The translations under genes and the position numbers were made by a program. A model generated the notes under the pieces. The model was not told the DNA's origin and searched no databases. It was given only the letters and a program-made list of their open reading frames with translations. From Patescibacteria group bacterium (lineage in GTDB: Bacteria; Patescibacteriota; Minisyncoccia; Phycocordibacterales; CAIRYW01), in contig JAZKAJ010000019.1 in the NCBI GenBank assembly GCA_040389185.1, positions 15,523 to 79,522 of the forward strand: a stretch of DNA of 64,000 nucleotides, read 5' to 3'. Below, in pieces: positions 9,484-59,564 of the stretch. The number at the start of each line of letters is the position of its first letter. The stretch's first letter is position 1.

Positions 9484-10815
<1,332 letters not shown>

Positions 10816-11225: not shown

Positions 11226-12176
11226 ATGCAAAAAAATAAAAAACACCCCTCAATTTTAGTTTCCGGCTCACTAGTTTTTGATACCATCTTTGAACTTCAA
11301 AGCGCGATCAAGGATCAGGTCAGAATTGAAAATGGAATCGCAGGTAAACAAAACCTCATGTTCACCGCAAAAGAAAAGCAGGTTTATTTTGGGGGGACTG
11401 GAGGAAATATTTGTTATGGACTTGGACTTTTAAAGCAATCTTCATTTGCACTCTCAGCAGTTGGTAAAGACTTTGCAAGCTATAGTGCATGGCTTGAAAT
11501 GAGCAATGCTGAATTTCGAGGAAAGATAGATGAAGCAGGCTTTACAGCAACTTTTTTTGGAATGACAGATACTAGCAAAGATCAGCTAGGAATTTTTCAA
11601 GGAGGATCATACAACAAACATGTCGCTTCCCTATCGTTAACATCAAATTTTTCGAACAAAGAATTAGAACAAATCAAGTGTGCAATCTTTTCTCCAGGGA
11701 CTGCCAAAAGTATTGCAAAACAAATAGCGGAATTTAGAAAAATAAATTCCGAAGCTTTTACAATCTTTGATCCAGGACAGATGCTCGCAATCGATTTCAC
11801 ACCCGAACTTCTTATAAAGTCTCTCAAAAATTCAGACATACTTATATTGAACGATACGGAATTTTCATACCTCAAAAATTCTTTTGGAATTGATATAGAA
11901 AAAATATTTAGTCTCGGTGTGTCATACATTATTGAAACTAAAGGTGCGGACGGAAGTATCCTTTACGAAAAAGAAGACGAGAGTATCAGAGAAACAAAAA
12001 TAAAATCTCCCAAAGTAAAGAAAGTACTTGATCCAACAGGCGCCGGAGATGCATATCGCGCTGGAATTATGTATGGAATAGTAAACGATCTTGATATAAA
12101 AGAATCGATGACTCTCGCATCAAAACTTGGAGCAGAATGTGTAAAACATCGAGGCGGACAAACCTATTCAATATAA
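11226..12176 (+). CDS. PfkB-family nucleoside/sugar kinase (adenosine kinase-like; adjacent to ahcY)
   Basis: DPTGAGDAYRAGIMYG signature near the C-terminus; 316 aa. Confidence 0.75.
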   Translation: MQKNKKHPSILVSGSLVFDTIFELQSAIKDQVRIENGIAGKQNLMFTAKEKQVYFGGTGGNICYGLGLLKQSSFALSAVGKDFASYSAWLEMSNAEFRGKIDEAGFTATFFGMTDTSKDQLGIFQGGSYNKHVASLSLTSNFSNKELEQIKCAIFSPGTAKSIAKQIAEFRKINSEAFTIFDPGQMLAIDFTPELLIKSLKNSDILILNDTEFSYLKNSFGIDIEKIFSLGVSYIIETKGADGSILYEKEDESIRETKIKSPKVKKVLDPTGAGDAYRAGIMYGIVNDLDIKESMTLASKLGAECVKHRGGQTYSI

Positions 12177-12196
12177 TTATTTTTGGTAAATAAATC

Positions 12197-12232
12197 TTGT
12201 AATTATCCACACGGGTGTAGAAATAATTACAA
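12197..12232. promoter_or_regulatory. imperfect 36-bp palindrome ttgtaattat-ccacacgggtgtagaa-ataattacaa; terminator or operator
   Basis: Shares the half-site gtgtagaaa(t)aattaca with the 12735-12766 palindrome. Confidence 0.45.
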
Positions 12233-12252
12233 TATTTATTTATAATAGTATT

Positions 12253-12738
12253 ATGTCTCTTATTCTTGATATTCTAAATGAAATGTGGGATGCAACCTTA
12301 AACTACAAAGGTGTAACAGTGAATTTCTTTGGAGTACCATATTTTAAAACTAAGAAGCAGTCATCGCTTAGAGTCACTTTGTCCAGATTAGAAAAGAAGA
12401 AATTAATCCAGAAAAACAATAATGGCTGGGAAATACTGGAAGCTGGTAAAAAGTATCTGAACGAGCATAATAATCTTATTAAACTTCAATCCCCTTTTGA
12501 TAAATCATCTCCAAAAAATTTGATATTAATGTTTGATATTCCAGAGGATATGCGACAAATGAGAGACTGGTTAAGAGATCAACTAAAGATTTATGGATAT
12601 AAAATGGTGCAACAAAGTGTTTGGGTTGGGCCATCACCACTACCTCAAGAATTTAAAAAGATTATAAATGATTTAGGTATGAAGAAAAATATTAAGACAT
12701 TTAAATTAGCTTCACCCTACAAACAAAAAATAATGTAA
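12253..12738 (+). CDS. winged-helix plus Cas2/VapD-like domain protein (PaaX-like small regulator?)
   Basis: N-terminal wHTH (LRVTLSRLEKKKLIQKNNNGWEILEAGKKYL). The C-terminal LILMFDIPEDMRQMRDWLRDQLKIYGYKMVQQSVWVG matches the Cas2 pattern (V.V.YD....R.R..L...L...G.RVQ.SVF). Confidence 0.5.
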   Translation: MSLILDILNEMWDATLNYKGVTVNFFGVPYFKTKKQSSLRVTLSRLEKKKLIQKNNNGWEILEAGKKYLNEHNNLIKLQSPFDKSSPKNLILMFDIPEDMRQMRDWLRDQLKIYGYKMVQQSVWVGPSPLPQEFKKIINDLGMKKNIKTFKLASPYKQKIM

Positions 12739-12766
12739 TTTTCTACACGGCCGTGTAGAAAATTAC
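12735..12766. terminator. perfect 32-bp palindrome gtaattttctacacgg/ccgtgtagaaaattac followed by a T-rich run
   Basis: Overlaps the stop codon of 12253..12738. Confidence 0.55.
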
Positions 12767-12788
12767 ATTATTTTATTTATTGCTATAG

Positions 12789-13247
12789 CTAGATTATTTT
12801 AATAAGTGCAAGAGCGGCTTCGATGCCTTTATTTGTTGCACCACTTGAACGAATTTTCGCCTGTTCAAGATTGTTTACAGTAAGAATTGCATTTGTGATT
12901 GGAAGATCGTGCTTCAACATCACATCCATAATTCCTCGAGTTGATTCGTTTGAGATCTGGTAGTAATGGTCTGTATCTCCTTTGATGACGCATCCGATTG
13001 CGATGATACCTTTGTATTTTTTAGTTTTGGCCAATCTTTGACAGAGAAGTGGTATTTCAAATGCACCAGGCACATTCACAATTACGATGTTTGCTTCTTT
13101 TGTTCCATGAAATTTTAACTCTTCAATCGCACCATCTCGCATTGGAAATGTGATGTCACTGTTGTATTCAGACACAACAATTGCAATTTTTACTTTCGAT
13201 AAATCTTTAGCTTTATTCATCCCCTTTTTTTGCTCTCCTCGTTGCAT
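12789..13247 (-). CDS. ribH: 6,7-dimethyl-8-ribityllumazine synthase
   Basis: KIAIVVSEYNSDIT...GAFEIP...IAIGCVIKGDTDHY motifs. Confidence 0.85.
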   Translation of the reverse strand: MQRGEQKKGMNKAKDLSKVKIAIVVSEYNSDITFPMRDGAIEELKFHGTKEANIVIVNVPGAFEIPLLCQRLAKTKKYKGIIAIGCVIKGDTDHYYQISNESTRGIMDVMLKHDLPITNAILTVNNLEQAKIRSSGATNKGIEAALALIKII

Positions 13248-13266
13248 ATTATTTTTGATTTTTGAT

Positions 13267-13851
13267 TTATAATTTTTGATTTCCCAATATATATTTTCCC
13301 ATCACATCCACCTCAACATTTACACTGTCTCCGAGTGTGAGTTCACCAAGATTTGTATGTTCTAAAGTATACGGTATCAAAGAAATATTAAAAGATTTTG
13401 AATTGCGTGCTGACACTGTGAGTGACACTCCATTTACCGCAACAGATCCCTTATAGACTACATATTTAAGAAATTCTTTTGGAATACTAATCTCAAAAAA
13501 TCGAGAATCGCCTTGTTTTGTAATGGTTTTTATCGTACCCACCGTATCAATATGACCGTATACAAAGTGTCCATCTAAAGTATCCCCGAGTCGCAAACTT
13601 GGCTCAAGATTCATCTTCCCTCCAACACCCCATGTACCCACATTTGTTTTACTCAAAGTCTCCTTCATGTATCCAACCTTGAACTCATTTTTTGTAAATG
13701 AGATCACTGTTGAGCAAACCCCGTTTATAGAAATACTTGCACCTTTTTTAATATCAAACTTTTTTGGCAATTCAAAACTAACAACGAGAATTTCATTTTC
13801 TTTTTTGACACTTTTTATCTTTGCAGTTTTTTGTATGATTCCAGTAAACAT
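13267..13851 (-). CDS. ribE: riboflavin synthase alpha subunit
   Basis: MFTGII N-terminus and duplicated GxSIxxNGVCSTV / SxAVNGVSLTV barrel halves. Confidence 0.85.
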   Translation of the reverse strand: MFTGIIQKTAKIKSVKKENEILVVSFELPKKFDIKKGASISINGVCSTVISFTKNEFKVGYMKETLSKTNVGTWGVGGKMNLEPSLRLGDTLDGHFVYGHIDTVGTIKTITKQGDSRFFEISIPKEFLKYVVYKGSVAVNGVSLTVSARNSKSFNISLIPYTLEHTNLGELTLGDSVNVEVDVMGKYILGNQKL

Positions 13852-13892
13852 TTATCGGAGAATTTTTTATCTATTAAAAAGTGTGGATGAAT

Positions 13893-14237
13893 TTATTTGT
13901 GACCAAAAAGAATTGCCCATGCATCCATAGTATCTTTTTCTATTTTTTCTTTAAGTAATCCTATATCAGAAAATTCTTCGTCATCTCGTATCTTTTCTAA
14001 CACCTCAACCTTAATCGTCTTTCCATAAATATTTTTTTTGAAATCAAGGATGTGTGCCTCCAATATCTCCTTTCGTTTTTTTCCCACATAGAGTACCGCA
14101 TCAAGAATCTCCTTACCCAGAACAACTCTCCCAGCATAAATTCCTGGCAATACATTATCTTTATTGTTTATATTCGCTGTCGGGAATCCTAATTTTGTTG
14201 CACTTTTATCTCCTTTGAGTACTTTTCCTTCAGTCAT
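13893..14237 (-). CDS. riboflavin kinase (monofunctional flavokinase domain)
   Basis: LGFPTANI...G.Y...HILDF....YG signature; 114 aa. Confidence 0.7.
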   Translation of the reverse strand: MTEGKVLKGDKSATKLGFPTANINNKDNVLPGIYAGRVVLGKEILDAVLYVGKKRKEILEAHILDFKKNIYGKTIKVEVLEKIRDDEEFSDIGLLKEKIEKDTMDAWAILFGHK

Positions 14238-14830: not shown

Positions 14831-15091
14831 GTGGAAAATAACGATAAAGAACCAATAAAACCAAGCGCTTTTGAGACAAAAGAACCAATGACAACTGCCG
14901 AACTCGTCTCCTTTGCATCTGAAGTTGGATTTTCTATCGCCCTACCACTTGCCGGATTTGCGGTTGTAGGACACTTACTTGATAACAACTTAGGGACTGG
15001 AAAAACATTCCTCATTGTCGGACTCCTTCTTTCAATCATCTCTACAAGTGTCATTATTTATAATAAAGTTAAAGGATTTTTAATTAAATAG
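14831..15091 (+). CDS. AtpZ/AtpI-like small membrane protein preceding the atp operon
   Basis: Two TM helices, immediately upstream of atpB. Confidence 0.45.
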   Translation: MENNDKEPIKPSAFETKEPMTTAELVSFASEVGFSIALPLAGFAVVGHLLDNNLGTGKTFLIVGLLLSIISTSVIIYNKVKGFLIK

Positions 15092-15220
15092 CCATGAATC
15101 CCGTTAGAAGCCGCGGTCACGATTTAATAGGAAGCTGTAGTATAATATGAAAATGAAGCAAAAAAATTACAAATTTAATCTAAGTAGTAGCGAGATGATC
15201 GCGACCTGCTTCTAAACGGG

Positions 15221-15967
15221 ATGAATATTTCAATTTCAGCAGAACCTGTATTCCACATAGGATCACTTGCATTCACCAACGCATTTATGACAAATCTTCT
15301 TGTGATTTGTATCATTTTGGTTTTAGCTATCACTTTTTTCAAAAAAATAAAAAAGGTTCCAGGACGATTCCAGGCACTTGGAGAGATTGTTATGGAAGAG
15401 TTTATAAAGTTTATGACAACTTTTGCAGGCTCAGAAGCACGAGTTCGACAATTCCTACCCCTCGTTGCAACAATATTTTGTCTCGTACTTGCTTCAAACT
15501 GGATTGGGACAATACCAGGATTTGAATCGATTGGATTTTATGAAATGGAAAACGGACACGAAATATTTGTACCACTCTTTCGAACTGCAAACTCAGATCT
15601 TAATATGACATTAGCACTGGCCATTATTGTGGTGATAGGATCACACATTGTTGGGCTCACAACCCTGAAAGGCAGGCACTTCAAAAAATTCCTTGTAAAC
15701 CCTTTTAAACACCCTATTGGATTCTTTGTTGGAATTCTTGAAATTGTGGGAGAGTTTTCTCGACTTATCTCCCTCACATTCCGACTTTTCGGTAACATTT
15801 TTGCAGGATCAGTTTTGATGCTTATTATGACCACTCTGGCGCCATATATTGTGCCTGTACCTTTTTTGGGACTTGAGATCTTCCTTGGATTCATCCAGGC
15901 GCTCGTATTTGCGGTTCTTGCCATGATGTTTATGGCAAGCTCGATGGAGATGCACACAGAGCATTAA
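15221..15967 (+). CDS. atpB: F0F1 ATP synthase subunit a
   Basis: LTFRLFGNIFAGSVLM conserved Arg-helix. Confidence 0.9.
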   Translation: MNISISAEPVFHIGSLAFTNAFMTNLLVICIILVLAITFFKKIKKVPGRFQALGEIVMEEFIKFMTTFAGSEARVRQFLPLVATIFCLVLASNWIGTIPGFESIGFYEMENGHEIFVPLFRTANSDLNMTLALAIIVVIGSHIVGLTTLKGRHFKKFLVNPFKHPIGFFVGILEIVGEFSRLISLTFRLFGNIFAGSVLMLIMTTLAPYIVPVPFLGLEIFLGFIQALVFAVLAMMFMASSMEMHTEH

Positions 15968-24746: not shown

Positions 24747-26028
24747 TTAGAGTTTCGCGATTAATTCCTCAATCTCCATTGTTGTACTTTCCATCCCCAT
24801 TCCACCCGCCACAATTCGTAGTATTGGCTCAGTATTTGACGATCTGATATTAACCCAAAACTCATTAAAGACAAATGTGAGTCCATCTCGCCTATCAATT
24901 CGATTTGCCCTTTTTCCTAAAGATTTTTCGACTTCAGTATAAATCACCGCCATATCTTTGCCTTCTGTTTTGATTTCTTTTGTGGTTACTATATGCTCTC
25001 CAAATTCTTTTTGCCATTCTGAAAGATTCTTTTCCATCTTTGAAATAGAATTCAAGAATGTAATCGCAGCAAATATTCCAGAATCAGCATTAAAGAACTC
25101 TTTAAAATAATAGTGTCCAGAATATTCCGCTCCAAAGTCCGCATTTTGACCTCTGAGCGTCTCTTTGATGAAATATGCACCAATTCTCGATGGTACCATT
25201 TGCTCCTCTGGAACAAGCTTCAAAAGCCTCACAGACTGATATACAAGTTCATCGAGAATGTAGGGTGGATTAAATTCGCTCTTCAGAAGCCCTACTACAA
25301 AACATGCAGGAATCATCTCTCCTCTATCATCCAAAAAGAATGCACGGTCTGCATCAGCATCAAACATTAGACCGAGATCTGCACCATTTTCAAGTATCGC
25401 TTTTTTACACTGTAGACTCGCCCCATCAAGTAATGGATTTGGTCCATGGGCTTTAAAATCAGCGTCAATCTCATCGTTTATAACAATCGCATTCACGTTT
25501 GTCTCTGCAAATAAGTCTTTTATTATCATTCCTGCAGGACCATTGGATACATCAAAAATTACTTTGAGAGGCTTACTCACATTTAACTTTTTCTTCAAAA
25601 AATCTATATAAGTATTTTTATAATCCATTTGTTTCAATAACCTTGAGTAATTCGATACCACTAAAAGGCAGCGCTTTTTCTTTGACCGCTTTGACTCCAC
25701 TGTATTCTTTTGGATTATGAGATGCGGTGATCATTACACCCCCTGAAGCCTTGAAGTGATTAACAAGAAAATAAAACATCGGGGTCGTCGAAAGACCAAC
25801 AGAAATTATTTCAAATTTTTTGTTCAAAGTTTCACCGTACGAAACGATTTCCTTTTCGAGAGTTGCTGTTAGCTCTTCGCCACCATGTCGTCCATCTCGA
25901 GCAACAACGATACTTCCAGATGGAAGAAGTATTGCGAGCGCATGGGCAATTACCGTCACAGCCTCAACATTTACATCTCTAGGATATATTCCACGAACAT
26001 CATAAGCTTTAAATATCTTTTTATTCAT
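24747..26028 (-). pseudogene. phosphoglucosamine/phosphomannomutase (alpha-D-phosphohexomutase) interrupted by a single-nucleotide frameshift near 25620-25650
   Basis: The N-terminal ORF 25618..26028 has TASHNP. The C-terminal ORF 24747..25700 has the domain II-IV pattern. The two overlap in different frames around LLK. Confidence 0.6.
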
Positions 26029-26146
26029 CCCCGTTTCGAAGCAGGTCGCGGTCGGTCCGCTTCTGCTCGGTTTAATTTATAAACGTTTTTTCTGTTCATA
26101 TTAGATTTATATTTAATTCAAATCGTGACCGCGGCTTCGAACGGGG
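26029..26146. mobile_element. MITE-like hairpin element B (variant termini ccccgtttcgaagc / gcttcgaacgggg)
   Basis: Inverted termini related to the family TIR. It abuts the ATG of the phosphohexomutase gene. Confidence 0.5.
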
Positions 26147-26407
26147 TCATCCCGTTCGAAACAGGAAGCGCTTTAATCTTGCTTTAAGATAACACTTACC
26201 TCTTCCAGATTTTAAATATAATTCTCTCGATCGAGCATCATCTTCGTTAATTGAGGCTTCATAATATACGAGTATAAACGGGCCTCTGCCTTTTGTCCAA
26301 GTCGATTCACCATTTTGATGTTGTTTAAAGCGCTTCCGTAGATCCTTTGTAAATCCAGTATAAAACTTACCATCTTTGGTACTCATTATTATGTAAGTGT
26401 AGAACAT
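26147..26407 (-). CDS. GIY-YIG nuclease domain protein (86 aa; YhbQ/COG2827-like)
   Basis: FYTYIIMS...GKFYTGFTKDLRKRFKQH...E...R.RELYLKSGRGK motif set. Confidence 0.65.
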   Translation of the reverse strand: MFYTYIIMSTKDGKFYTGFTKDLRKRFKQHQNGESTWTKGRGPFILVYYEASINEDDARSRELYLKSGRGKCYLKARLKRFLFRTG

Positions 26408-26429
26408 AACTGAGGGGTTTCGAACGGGA
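26150..26429. mobile_element. 280-bp element A with perfect 13-bp TIRs (tcccgttcgaaac / gtttcgaacggga) carrying only a GIY-YIG gene
   Basis: TIRs read directly. The left TIR encodes the C-terminal residues FLFRTG* of the nuclease. Confidence 0.6.
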
Positions 26430-26837
26430 TTAATTCCCAGGGCAAGGTGCGAATTCACAATTTGGTCCCTGTCGCCCGATATAAGATCCATCAGGACACT
26501 GTTTTGCTTCCATAGTACAAGCCACTTGATCTCCTGGTTCATCTGCAGAATGAGGTGGCGCCACTGGGTCAGGTTGACTTGGATCATAGGGAGTTTCTGT
26601 AACAGGAGTAGGATATGTATATTCGTTTCCCTCAGGCAGAGGATACGCTTTGAAATTTCCGTTAGTTGGAACAGTAATATTCATTGGTGGTCGAGGAGAA
26701 ATATCTACCGGAATGTTTCCATTATTACTATTAAAAAACGGCCTATGAAATACAACTGGCCAGAGCCAGATGATGAGATACACAATGAATATGATACCAA
26801 TGATTTGCCATATTTTGTCGTTTTCTTTCATGTTCAT
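26430..26837 (-). CDS. secreted or membrane-anchored Pro-rich protein with a Cys-rich C-terminus (135 aa)
   Basis: N-terminal TM; C-terminal CTMEAKQCPDGSY..CEFAPCPGN. Confidence 0.5.
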   Translation of the reverse strand: MNMKENDKIWQIIGIIFIVYLIIWLWPVVFHRPFFNSNNGNIPVDISPRPPMNITVPTNGNFKAYPLPEGNEYTYPTPVTETPYDPSQPDPVAPPHSADEPGDQVACTMEAKQCPDGSYIGRQGPNCEFAPCPGN

Positions 26838-44227: not shown

Positions 44228-44279
44228 CCACATAAATACAAAAACTCCCCAACTAAGGGGAGTTTTTGTATTTATGTGG
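44228..44279 (-). terminator. 23-bp perfect hairpin immediately 3' of tRNA-Ala (ccacataaatacaaaaactcccc / ggggagtttttgtatttatgtgg)
   Basis: Read directly. Overlaps the last 3 nt of the tRNA. Confidence 0.7.
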
Positions 44280-44349
44280 ACCCTACCAGATTCGAACTGG
44301 TGACCTCCTCATTGCAAATGAGGCGCTCTACCAACTAAGCTAAGGGCCC
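44277..44349 (-). tRNA. tRNA-Ala (anticodon UGC); G3:U70 present; CCA not encoded
   Basis: Cloverleaf folded by hand: GGGCCCT acceptor, anticodon loop TTTGCAA, T-arm CCAGTTCGAATCTGG; 73 nt. Confidence 0.85.
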
Positions 44350-50864: not shown

Positions 50865-50970
50865 CCCGATTAGAAAAATTAAGTAATTACTAATGTTTAA
50901 ATAAATTTGTTTATCACCGCCACATTCTCGTTTGAAATAGATATTTATCTTTTTCTAACGGGACTTTGTA

Positions 50971-51117: not shown

Positions 51118-51164
51118 GTGTTTTTTTATTAATTAATACTGGAGTTCCCGCACAACTTTTTTGC

Positions 51165-52160
51165 TTATTTTCTACTAATTACTTTTATTACAGCTTTTTC
51201 TATAAATTTCTCTGTCATCTCATAGTGCTCTAAAAGTTGTTCGGGAGTCCCTGACTGGCCAAATAGATTCTTCACACCCACAAATTCAATCGGTACAATA
51301 TAATTCTGTGCGAGACACTCTGCCACGGCTGATCCCATTCCACCAGCGATCTGATGCTCTTCAACAGTGACGACAGCTCCGGCTCTATGCGCCACTTCTA
51401 CAATAGTCTGCACATCAAACGGTTTAATCGTTGCAAGATTAACCACAATTGATCCAACATCCTTCTTCTCCAATTCTGAAGCGACAGCAAGAGCCTTGTG
51501 TACGAGCGCACCTGTCGCAATAATCGCAACTTTTGGTTTCACACTTTCAAAAAATATTTGAGCTTTACCTACTATAAATGGCGTATCCGAAGTTGTGATG
51601 ATCGGAGTCTTTTCTCGTGCAAGTCTCAAATACACAGGAGTTTTAATATCGTCTTTAAGTATTGCTTGCGTTGCTTTTTTGGCTTCAATCGCATCACAGG
51701 GAGATATGACTGTCATGTTTGGAATTACACGTGTGATGGCAATATCTTCAATCGCTTGATGTGTTCCACCATCAGGTCCAACAGAGACTCCGGCATGCGA
51801 ACCTGCAATAATAACCTTCCGGTTGTTGTAACAAATAGTGGTACGGATCTGCTCCCAATTTCTTCCTGGAGAAAACATTGCATATGAAGAGATTACAGGC
51901 ACCTTGCCCATTGCAGCCATTCCAGACGCAACAGATGCAAGGTTTTGTTCTGCAACTCCAATCTCCACAAATCGATTCGGGAATTTATTTTTGAAATCAA
52001 GCATCTTTGTAGATTCTGTAAGATCTGCACAAAGAGCAACGATTCGTTCATCTTTTTCTGCAGACAATACCAATCCTTCTCCAAAACCATTTCTAATTGG
52101 AGTCTGTTCAACATCTTTGTCGAAAATTTTACTATTTAGTTTTTGATTTGGATTTAACAT
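51165..52160 (-). CDS. transketolase, C-terminal subunit (pyrimidine-binding and C-terminal domains)
   Basis: Split-transketolase architecture; 331 aa. Confidence 0.8.
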   Translation of the reverse strand: MLNPNQKLNSKIFDKDVEQTPIRNGFGEGLVLSAEKDERIVALCADLTESTKMLDFKNKFPNRFVEIGVAEQNLASVASGMAAMGKVPVISSYAMFSPGRNWEQIRTTICYNNRKVIIAGSHAGVSVGPDGGTHQAIEDIAITRVIPNMTVISPCDAIEAKKATQAILKDDIKTPVYLRLAREKTPIITTSDTPFIVGKAQIFFESVKPKVAIIATGALVHKALAVASELEKKDVGSIVVNLATIKPFDVQTIVEVAHRAGAVVTVEEHQIAGGMGSAVAECLAQNYIVPIEFVGVKNLFGQSGTPEQLLEHYEMTEKFIEKAVIKVISRK

Positions 52161-57195: not shown

Positions 57196-57384
57196 CCTGT
57201 TCTAAATAGGAGAGGCTTTAGCAATCCCAATATTTTATTTAATAAATTGATAATGGTTATTTTCTAGCTTATACTGCACTAAAACTAAGCGCTTCCGAAA
57301 TATTTAGGATTTAAACTGTTTATCAATCCTATAGTCACACATTTAATAATGTAACTTCGGACAACTGTGGGATTTCGAACGGGA
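57195..57384. mobile_element. MITE-like element C (degenerate left terminus tcctgttctaaat, perfect right terminus atttcgaacggga); about 90% similar to element D
   Basis: Aligned by eye to 62455-62643. Its left end abuts the gap start codon. Confidence 0.55.
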
Positions 57385-59348: not shown

Positions 59349-59564
59349 ATGACCCCCTGTGACTACCATGGCTGCGAAAGTGAAGGAACTCATACCATTC
59401 TTTGTATGGGAAGTTACTGCGAGACTCACTTCGACTTAATCAAACGGCGAGAAAACGATCATGATGATGACGACGATGACAATGACGATGATTTCGAAGA
59501 TTCCGAAGAAGACAATGATGATGAGGAAGATGAGGAGGGCGAGGATGATGATGAAGGAAAATAA
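59349..59564 (+). CDS. small Cys/His zinc-binding protein with a poly-acidic (D/E) tail
   Basis: CDYHGCE...CMGSYCETH followed by about 40 residues of D/E. Confidence 0.5.
   Translation: MTPCDYHGCESEGTHTILCMGSYCETHFDLIKRRENDHDDDDDDNDDDFEDSEEDNDDEEDEEGEDDDEGK

Follow-up and report, generated by a model that had tools for sequence, protein, structure and literature searches.

A very small GIY-YIG nuclease unit with base-pairing ends and five gene-less derivatives at start codons: a candidate class of bacterial mobile element

We analyzed a 64,000-nucleotide stretch of DNA from a Patescibacteria group bacterium (assembly GCA_040389185.1, contig JAZKAJ010000019.1), referred to below as the window. 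A short gene encoding a stand-alone GIY-YIG domain lies in it upstream of the PGM gene, enclosed by an inverted repeat and followed by a hairpin. The original prediction described a 280-bp unit with 13-bp perfect inverted repeats, an 86-aa GIY-YIG protein as its only gene and an adjacent 118-bp hairpin at 26029-26146 as a nonautonomous sibling. This description was confirmed with minor corrections. The inverted repeat (P1) is 14 nt long and 100% complementary, one base longer than reported, and with boundaries set at Y-CCCG...CGGG the coding unit is 279 bp. The hairpin is real, its arms carry a 1-nt indel, and its DNA fold has z = -4.4; however, it is not the only sibling, as four further non-coding copies are present in the window. 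The 13-mer terminal motif, with up to 2 mismatches allowed, occurs 9 times in the window against 1.15 expected, and none of 100 shuffles reached 9. The start-codon target, a second helix (P2) located inside the ORF, and the borrowed start and stop codons were not part of the original prediction. The features are as follows.

26151..26429, minus strand: coding unit of 279 bp, reading T-CCCG...CGGG on the minus strand.
26147..26407, minus strand: GIY-YIG nuclease ORF, 86 aa plus stop; the stop TGA (26149-26147) lies outside the unit, in the duplicated target ATGA.
26417..26430, minus strand: P1 5' arm (ATCCCGTTCGAAAC), ending 9 nt upstream of the ATG.
26149..26162, minus strand: P1 3' arm (GTTTCGAACGGGAT), encoding ..LFRTG and the first bases of the stop codon.
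26325..26337, minus strand: P2 5' strand (GGAAGCGCTTTAA), 13 bp, inside codons for LRKRFK.
26164..26176, minus strand: P2 3' strand (TTAAAGCGCTTCC), inside codons for LKRFL and directly next to the P1 3' arm.
26430..26434, minus strand: left flank ATTAA, a decayed copy of the target duplication, overlapping the TAA stop of the upstream 135-aa gene.
26030..26146, minus strand: non-coding hairpin unit of 117 bp (C-CCCG...CGGG), between the coding unit and the PGM start codon.
15099..15220, plus strand: non-coding hairpin unit of 122 bp, between an atpI-like gene (14831-15091) and atpB (ATG at 15221).
50865..50963, minus strand: non-coding hairpin unit of 99 bp, abutting the ATG (50864) of a 73-aa ORF.
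57196..57384, minus strand: non-coding unit of 189 bp, a decayed, internally deleted GIY gene with P1 and P2 remnants, abutting the GAPDH ATG (57195).
62456..62643, minus strand: non-coding unit of 188 bp, a decayed GIY gene filling exactly the gap between the ABC ATPase stop (62646-62644) and the permease ATG (62455).

The window thus holds six copies, one coding and five non-coding, placed directly against the start codons of six genes. A further candidate pair at 51147-51245 has no CCCGTT-type arm and was treated as chance.

The ORF matches the GIY-YIG model PF01541 with E = 1.4e-16 (61 bits against a cut-off of 22.6), and 518 homologues of 86 aa at about 70% identity were found. Residues Y3, Y5, Y16, G18, R24, R26, H30 and E62 are invariant in 32 homologues. 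No conserved Asn follows E62, and the protein is a minimal domain, consisting of the catalytic domain plus one basic helix; by the criterion of PMC1564403 this places it with Slx1-type rather than UvrC- or homing endonuclease-type proteins. Profile comparison with PDB gave 1zg2 (UPF0213) at E = 1.7e-12, 1ywl at 4.2e-05 and SLX1 at 0.0025, while Foldseek ranked 1zg2 first, followed by five Slx1 entries, ahead of I-TevI and UvrC. The protein is under purifying selection, with a median dN/dS of 0.215. No close relatives were detected in viral contigs of IMG/VR, and a search with PADLOC gave only marginal hits.

The same architecture was found in 76 homologous loci from Patescibacteria and a few other phyla, with repeats of 13-16 bp in about 70 of them. 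Both helices are kept through compensatory changes: 95.7% of cells are paired against 86.0% when shuffled, and 196 cells show double changes against 50. None of 500 shuffles reached the observed values, and slid controls paired at 32-48%. Changes on both sides were seen in 11 of 15 P1 pairs. In P2 covariation falls at synonymous third codon positions (AU 44 / GC 27, CG 51 / UA 17, UA 43 / CG 19). The same helices were found de novo, P2 with RNAalifold. It is notable that pairing is strictly Watson-Crick with no excess of G·U: P1 has 973 Watson-Crick, 3 G·T and 6 A·C pairs, and P2 has 797, 15 and 10, respectively. This points to pairing at the level of DNA rather than of the sense mRNA.

We next analyzed the flanks of the units. 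In total, 81 related loci yielded 82 coding and 52 non-coding inverted-repeat pairs. Five or six of 6 flank positions match in 40 of 82 coding units against 14.9 expected, and in 23 of 51 non-coding units against 4.3 expected. Position 6 matches no better than chance, so that a duplication of about 5 bp fits best. The consensus ATGAA was derived from 53 sites with perfect 5-bp repeats (A 46, T 52, G 45, A 41, A 45). About half of the copies, however, lack a clean duplication. In the window the unit at 15099..15220 is flanked by ATGAAT/ATGAAT (15094-15099 and 15221-15226), whereas no recognisable duplication was found at 50865..50963. The 117-bp hairpin is flanked by a perfect 5-bp direct repeat GATGA (26151-26147 and 26029-26025, minus strand), which includes the last G of the coding unit; this hairpin was inserted after the coding unit. 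Once it is removed, the right flank of the coding unit is ATGAA, and the left flank ATTAA matches it at 4 of 5 positions. The TAA at 26430-26432 was not created by a G-to-T change, because empty sites already have AAT TAA.

Three insertion sites of the window are empty in close relatives, whose flanking proteins are 73-91% identical (L numbers denote the related loci compared). The 85%- and 79%-identical relatives (L145, L146-L148) have neither the gene nor the repeats, nor the 117-bp hairpin, between the same two genes upstream of PGM, while the 88% relative (L144) has both the gene and the repeats. The split of PGM is conserved, and a frameshift error was rejected as its cause. At atpI/atpB, empty sites with a single ATGCAT were seen in L152-L155, and empty ABC ATPase/permease junctions were seen in L087 (91% identity), L088 and L089. 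In addition, non-coding copies 94-95% identical to each other, with unrelated flanks, were found within one genome. Nested and tandem insertions, pseudogenised copies and several copies per 20 kb (11 of 80 loci) were also observed. The gene-less derivatives keep the helices; some are decayed genes of about 190 bp and others are hairpins of 66-125 bp. Their arms match the coding arms of the same locus at 0.849 against a null of 0.764 ± 0.014, and one rare variant is shared by the coding copy and three non-coding copies. More distant GIY-YIG paralogues carry their own, different terminal repeats.

Overall, 51 of 82 coding units and 6 of 6 window copies abut a start codon, although only 10% of ATGAA sites in the window are gene starts. 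The right-hand copy of the target, which is usually the start codon of the host gene, keeps the host ORF intact and supplies the stop codon of the nuclease (GGA-TGA, overlapping the host ATG). The left-hand copy, with the host's own ribosome-binding context, is in frame with the nuclease ORF in 22 of 76 units, and in 8 of 76 it is the only start codon available.

These data support the mobile-element reading of the original prediction: the terminal motif is not confined to the two loci first described, and the gene is not conserved at this position in relatives that lack the repeats. We consider it more likely than not that this is one family of very small, target-specific mobile DNA elements. 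The role of the nuclease as the mobilising enzyme is inferred. In this model the nuclease recognises the folded, branched DNA formed by P1 and P2 at the ends of the element, as Slx1 recognises branched DNA, and cuts there; it makes or exploits a 5-bp staggered cut at ATGAA, host repair and ligation complete the insertion, and the hairpin derivatives are acted upon in trans. The start-codon bias would come from the target sequence plus selection, since insertions elsewhere kill genes in these compact genomes and the element has no promoter, stop codon or, in some copies, start codon of its own. No transposition or nuclease activity has been observed. GIY-YIG enzymes hydrolyse DNA and are not known to carry out strand transfer, so integration with a target duplication by this protein alone has no precedent and needs host functions. 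In two window sites the element exactly replaces the intergenic spacer, which simple insertion plus duplication does not explain, and all data come from metagenome-assembled genomes.

The hydrolytic chemistry leaves room for a possible, though less likely, alternative in which the units are mobile but the GIY-YIG protein is cargo or an accessory, for example a maintenance or addiction nuclease that cuts vacated sites so that repair restores the element. Movement would then come from an unlinked transposase or from host replication and repair acting on the hairpin. Hairpin copies are nearly as frequent as coding copies and are sometimes found without a coding copy nearby, and the protein has little beyond its catalytic domain. 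On the other hand, 279 bp leaves no room for another gene, the 3' terminus and P2 are embedded in the ORF and co-vary with it across phyla, non-coding termini track those of the coding copy in the same genome, several GIY-YIG subfamilies each have their own termini, and no transposase with these ends was seen in the window or in about 1.2 Mb of related loci. It is unlikely, but not fully excluded, that a host nuclease, domesticated or never selfish, is bracketed by REP-like repeats that serve the host in, for example, DNA repair at hairpins or operon architecture, with ancient insertions and losses and no current mobility. Purifying selection fits this view, as do orthologous insertions retained between related genomes (L025/L045, L077/L082, window/L144); some of these are old and vertically inherited yet remain constrained (L025/L045, dN/dS 0.05). 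Prokaryotic Slx1-like proteins were also described in a 2006 survey as vertically inherited repair genes (PMC1564403). The target duplications, nested and tandem insertions, near-identical copies at unrelated loci, empty sites, decayed copies and local multiplicity speak against it.

Two further explanations appear very unlikely. The helices could be mRNA structures controlling translation, by sequestering the nuclease start or by bringing the upstream stop or ribosome-binding site next to the downstream ATG. The units do lie inside operons, hairpin copies are always co-directional with the abutted gene (11 of 11), which could mean a constraint at the mRNA level, and in two window sites the stem base juxtaposes the upstream TAA and the downstream ATG. 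However, G·U is not in excess over A·C mismatches and is below 1% of pairs. Rfam 15 detected only tRNA-Ala in the window at gathering scores and nothing at E up to 1 in 25950-26500. ARAGORN likewise found only tRNA-Ala (44276-44349), despite a T-arm resemblance of GTTCGAA. An RNA function does not explain target duplications, empty sites or copies away from start codons, although it may be a secondary adaptation of inserted copies. A free-standing GIY-YIG homing endonuclease gene spreading by double-strand-break repair, with incidental inverted repeats, has only weak similarity to homing-endonuclease models in its favor (TIGR01453, phrog_314 and the PADLOC HEase model). The TIGR01453 score of 28.8 bits is below the curated cut-off of 56.05 and covers only the catalytic core, there is no DNA-binding domain, sequence and structure place the protein with Slx1/UPF0213, and there are dozens of insertion loci with target duplications and non-autonomous derivatives rather than one cognate site. 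A group I intron or IStron was rejected because the units are too small, lie between genes and have direct repeats as flanks.

Among known systems, REP sequences with their RAYT transposase also combine a small nuclease-type gene flanked by inverted hairpin-forming repeats with many scattered gene-less intergenic copies, and REPs appear to be recognised as folded DNA. However, RAYTs are HUH (Y1) enzymes, unrelated to GIY-YIG, while Pfam and NCBIfam gave only GIY-YIG matches here; REPs are 20-40 nt, lie outside the gene and give no target duplication. IS200/IS605 elements, the smallest known autonomous insertion sequences, have ends acting as folded single-stranded DNA and insert at a specific 4-5-nt target, but they use a HUH transposase with a covalent intermediate, have subterminal hairpins instead of terminal repeats that pair with each other, make no target duplication and are 0.6-0.7 kb or larger. 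Bacterial MITEs (Correia, ERIC/IRU, RUP, Nezha and similar) are intergenic deletion derivatives of 100-200 bp with terminal inverted repeats, short target duplications and hairpin potential. Where known, their parents encode DDE transposases of 1 kb or more; here the parent is itself MITE-sized and encodes a GIY-YIG nuclease, and insertion is at start codons and co-directional with the gene. Prokaryotic Slx1-like/YhbQ/UPF0213 proteins (1zg2, 1ywl) and eukaryotic Slx1, which cuts branched DNA, belong to the same clade, but they are regarded as single-copy host repair genes (PMC1564403), and no terminal repeats, multiple copies or insertion polymorphism have been described for them. Homing endonucleases such as I-TevI and Seg proteins share the catalytic fold and a selfish lifestyle, but carry DNA-binding modules, cut one long cognate site and spread by homologous repair, without inverted-repeat ends, target duplications or non-autonomous derivatives. 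An integron cassette is likewise a promoter-less single ORF with an imperfect hairpin recognised as folded DNA and is expressed from host signals; however, attC lies 3' of the ORF, recombination needs IntI at a fixed attI site and makes no target duplication, and the arm order (GTT...AAC) is reversed here, although the integrase was not searched for genome-wide. No Rfam family, IS class or paper in the literature searched matches the element, but as that literature was incomplete, prior description elsewhere cannot be excluded.

We consider it about as likely as not that this is the smallest autonomous transposable element known, at about 0.28 kb, and the founder of a new mechanistic class in which a stand-alone Slx1-like structure-specific nuclease mobilises DNA whose ends fold into a branched structure partly written into its own coding sequence. 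Related GIY-YIG subfamilies with other termini would then form a wider superfamily that has spread between phyla. All described prokaryotic transposable elements use DDE/DEDD, HUH, serine, tyrosine or Cas1-type enzymes; a GIY-YIG-only element would add another chemistry and lower the known size limit for an autonomous element by more than half. It would also give a concrete function and substrate to the Slx1/YhbQ/UPF0213 family, which is widespread and unexplained in bacteria, and covariation at synonymous sites points to a DNA secondary structure conserved within an ORF. In practical terms, copies inflate annotations labelled 'GIY-YIG nuclease' or 'excinuclease ABC subunit C' and cause N-terminally extended gene calls such as MNPVRD..., and a small, structure- and ATGAA-directed nuclease might be useful as a tool. 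Insertion exactly at a start codon, with duplication of that codon and coupling of the element's own translation to the host gene, could explain how it survives in the extremely compact genomes of Patescibacteria.

All features of the original prediction, namely a GIY-YIG gene bracketed by inverted repeats and a neighbouring hairpin, were found to be present. A perfect 14-bp inverted repeat, ATCCCGTTCGAAAC / GTTTCGAACGGGAT, is located at 26149-26162 and 26417-26430. It brackets a minus-strand ORF, 26407..26147, of 86 aa, which matches the GIY-YIG domain (PF01541, E = 1.4e-16). The 5′ arm of the repeat ends 9 nt before the ATG, and the 3′ arm encodes the last residues of the protein (..FLFRTG). 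The neighbouring 118-bp hairpin at 26029-26146 is real. With up to 2 mismatches allowed, the terminal 13-mer occurs 9 times in the window against 1.15 expected, and none of 100 shuffles reached 9. Following these matches we identified four further non-coding units, so that the window holds six:

Units found in the window
15099-15220, plus strand: non-coding unit between an atpI-like gene and atpB
26030-26146, minus strand: non-coding hairpin unit before PGM
26151-26429, minus strand: the coding unit
50865-50963, minus strand: non-coding unit before a 73-aa ORF
57196-57384, minus strand: non-coding unit before GAPDH
62456-62643, minus strand: non-coding unit between an ABC ATPase and its permease

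The two units of about 190 bp are decayed, internally deleted GIY genes, 76% identical to each other, which in translation still read ..VVRSYIL, two stops, SK..IY..LRKRL ... KRFLFRTG. Every one of the six units abuts, at its 3′ end, the start codon of a co-directional gene. A 71-aa ORF ending in a long run of Asp/Glu (..DDDDDDNDDDFEDSEEDNDDEEDEEGEDDDEGK) was also seen in the window, at 59349-59564 on the plus strand.

The protein has 518 homologues, nearly all of them 86 aa long and about 70% identical, and most come from Patescibacteria. We obtained 80 loci from species-representative genomes and six more through one homologue (L numbers below denote loci compared with the window). Almost all show the same architecture, (ATGAA)T-CCCG-N8-10 ... 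ORF ... N8-10-CGGG-ATGA(A). The arm sequences differ between lineages (TTAGAGAT, TACGAAAT, TATGAAAT with CACG, TTCGAAAC, AATGTGAT and others), but the two arms of a unit always change together. A second GIY homologue is present within 20 kb in 11 of 80 loci, and a scan of 81 loci found 82 coding and 52 non-coding inverted-repeat pairs. Decayed coding copies were also seen: the copy at L027 487-784 has an in-frame TAA, whereas those in L019, L051 and L080, at about 10001-10260, have lost the 3′ arm and are directly followed by a hairpin unit.

To test whether pairing is conserved, we aligned 76 coding units and analyzed two helices. P1 pairs the 5′ leader with the last codons; P2 pairs GGAAACGCTTT in codons LRKRF with AAAGCGTTTCC in codons LKRFL and lies directly next to the P1 3′ strand. 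Overall, 95.7% of cells are paired, against 86.0% in shuffles; 17 pairs show changes on both sides, against 9.8; and 196 cells show double changes, against 50. None of 500 shuffles reached the observed values, and partners slid by 1-3 columns pair in only 32-48% of cells. The covarying positions of P2 are synonymous third codon positions (AU 44 / GC 27; CG 51 / UA 17; UA 43 / CG 19), and therefore protein constraint cannot explain them. RNAalifold found the same two helices de novo and nothing else of note. The window unit folds as DNA at -42.6 kcal/mol, against -23.3 ± 3.6 for shuffles (z = -5.4), with P1 and P2 formed. Mismatches show no strand asymmetry: P1 has 973 Watson-Crick, 3 G·T and 6 A·C cells, and P2 has 797, 15 and 10, respectively. 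A sense-strand RNA structure would tolerate G·U far more than A·C. We therefore infer that the constraint is pairing at the DNA level, in a hairpin or cruciform on either strand.

With boundaries set at CCCG...CGGG, the six bases on each side match at 5-6 positions in 40 of 82 coding units (14.9 expected from permuted flanks) and in 23 of 51 non-coding units (4.3 expected). Position 6 matches no better than chance, indicating that the duplication is about 5 bp and that the unit begins with Y (T or C). Variable examples, including ATGAG, ATGTA, ATGGA, ATGCA, ATGAC, GTCAA, GTGAG and GTATG, rule out a fixed element sequence. Reconstruction of 53 distinct pre-insertion sites gave the target A46 T52 G45 A41 A45, out of 53 each, with no strong motif outside it. 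A subtype with C-CCCG...CGGG-G ends (L020 6810-7107, L021, L047, L055, L058, L065, L070, L073, L074, L077, L078, L082, L084) has GTNNN-type flanking repeats and is often not at a start codon. Taking the binning at face value, it is prominent among loci binned as Omnitrophota, Planctomycetota, Desulfobacteraceae and Clostridia, although several carriers are labelled Patescibacteria or Candidatus Saccharibacteria.

Nested and tandem insertions occur. In L044 one hairpin unit is nested inside another (2436-2632 and 2539-2616), with its own short flanking repeat. In L040 a cluster of five hairpin units lies within 2.6 kb (11452-14040), and two of them are 95% identical in opposite orientations. 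In the window, the hairpin 26030-26146 has a perfect 5-bp repeat, GATGA, that includes the last G of the coding unit. The hairpin was therefore inserted later, into the junction between the coding unit and the PGM start codon.

Comparison with relatives identified empty sites for three window insertions:

Occupied and empty insertion sites
atpI/atpB: occupied in the window, ..gccATGAAT[122 bp]ATGAATATTTCAATTTCAGCAGAA; relatives at 75% and 73% AtpB identity are empty, with a single ..ATGCATATATCAATTTCAGCAGAG
135-aa gene/PGM: occupied in the window and L144 (88% PGM identity) by the coding unit plus hairpin, nearly identical in the two; empty in L145 (85%), with a 13-nt spacer, and in L146-L148 (79%), with a 49-nt spacer
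ABC ATPase/permease: occupied in the window; empty in L087 (permease 91% identical), with a 9-nt spacer; L088, L089 and the more distant relatives whose junctions were read (L090, L091, L094, L096, L105, L109, L121, L126) also lack the unit

The atpI/atpB case is a textbook target duplication. Within single genomes, non-coding copies 94-95% identical lie at loci with unrelated flanks (L040, L057). Together these observations show gain and spread of the units. At two window sites (26430-26434 / 26025-26029 and 62644-62646 / 62453-62455), however, the inserted unit or units fill exactly the space from the TAA of the upstream gene to the downstream ATG, whereas empty orthologous sites keep spacers of 9-49 nt. 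The stem base would bring stop and start together in the mRNA, but we cannot explain this exact replacement of the spacer. The phosphoglucomutase/phosphomannomutase gene next to the coding unit and hairpin (window 24747-26028, minus strand) is encoded as two ORFs, domain I of about 137 aa (25618-26028) and domains II-IV of about 293-317 aa. The same split is present in relatives (L144-L147) and in hundreds of Patescibacteria proteins of 135-140 aa, so it is a conserved split gene and not a frameshift error.

Arms of non-coding copies resemble the arms of the coding copy in the same locus more than those of other genomes (0.849, against a null of 0.764 ± 0.014 and a maximum of 0.806 in 2000 trials). 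In L057 the rare variant CCCGAATGTGAT, including its A:A mismatch, is shared by the coding copy and three hairpins. Short hairpins keep P1 plus a GC-rich second helix whose 3′ strand (..CGCGACCT-G-arm) corresponds to the P2 3′ strand of the gene (..GCGCTTCCT-G-arm). Where this asymmetry is visible, hairpins are always co-directional with the abutted gene (11 of 11). More distant GIY-YIG paralogues (40-50% identity; L011 11147-11332, L017 18261-18515, L058 4717-4950, L018 18483-18722) are bracketed by different inverted repeats of their own, for example TTTA/CCCCCACACCAAAT...ATTTGGTGTGGGGG/TTTA in L011, which suggests a wider superfamily of such elements.

By profile search, the nearest solved structures are the UPF0213 proteins BH0048 (1zg2, E = 1.7e-12) and EF2693 (1ywl), followed by SLX1. 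An AlphaFold model (pLDDT 89.6) has the GIY-YIG core plus a long basic C-terminal helix, and its best structural matches are 1zg2 and then five Slx1 entries, ahead of I-TevI and UvrC. Catalytic residues are invariant. Close pairs, including two copies within one genome, have dN/dS of 0.05-0.25 (median 0.215). The group I intron endonuclease model is matched only below its cut-off, and PADLOC and PHROGs give only weak homing-endonuclease hits. The 2006 survey of the superfamily treats prokaryotic Slx1-like proteins as minimal repair nucleases inherited vertically, and derives the selfish GIY-YIG lineages from the UvrC side, not the Slx1 side (PMC1564403).

The data establish a multicopy, insertion-polymorphic DNA unit with paired ends and a target duplication of about 5 bp at ATGAA, which exists in a coding form and as gene-less derivatives and borrows translation signals. 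That the Slx1-type nuclease recognises the folded ends and is the mobilising enzyme, acting also in trans, and that host repair completes integration, is inferred. GIY-YIG enzymes hydrolyse DNA and are not known to join it, some insertions are old yet still under selection, and about half of the copies lack clean duplications. Alternatively, the nuclease could be cargo or an accessory, a domesticated gene flanked by REP-like repeats, or a homing endonuclease, or the helices could be mRNA regulatory structures.

In shape the element is closest to REP/RAYT units and to MITEs with their parent IS, and in its use of folded DNA and a short specific target it is closest to IS200/IS605, but it fails the defining enzyme test of all of these. 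It is not a homing endonuclease gene, an integron cassette or a known RNA family. Our literature searches, which were incomplete and cannot exclude earlier description elsewhere, found no description of a prokaryotic element of this kind bounded by terminal inverted repeats and carrying a GIY-YIG gene. GIY-YIG domain proteins have been listed among genes transferred from Patescibacteria to other bacteria (PMC12455944), in agreement with the copies seen in Omnitrophota, Planctomycetota and other bins. Although the role of the enzyme has not been demonstrated, we consider the element categorically new with respect to the enzyme class and the start-codon-borrowing lifestyle.

Of 82 coding units, 56 are followed directly by ATG, and in 51 of them that ATG opens a co-directional ORF of at least 60 aa; 25 of 52 non-coding units also abut such a start. 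In the window only 31 of 301 ATGAA sites (10%) are gene starts, and start codons are therefore about six-fold over-represented among surviving insertions. The nuclease ORF has no stop codon of its own: its last Gly codon is completed by the A of the duplicated ATGAA and its stop is the following TGA, which therefore overlaps the host start (ATGA). Where the second codon of the host gene does not begin with A, the protein runs on, ending in RTGWNI, RTGCKQ or RTGCI before a stop. The left copy of the ATG is in frame and open into the nuclease ORF in 22 of 76 units, and in 8 of 76 it is the only start codon (MNPVRD..FYTY). This explains the N-terminally extended database entries with MNPVRD.. or MTPVRN..; the mechanically called 146-aa ORF at 26147-26587 (minus strand) arises in the same way, being the GIY ORF read upstream through the P1 arm (..NPVRN..) into the neighbouring gene in another frame. 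We infer that the start-codon bias could come from the target sequence plus selection in very compact genomes. The element has no promoter and no stop codon, sometimes has no start codon, and uses those of the gene it lands on.
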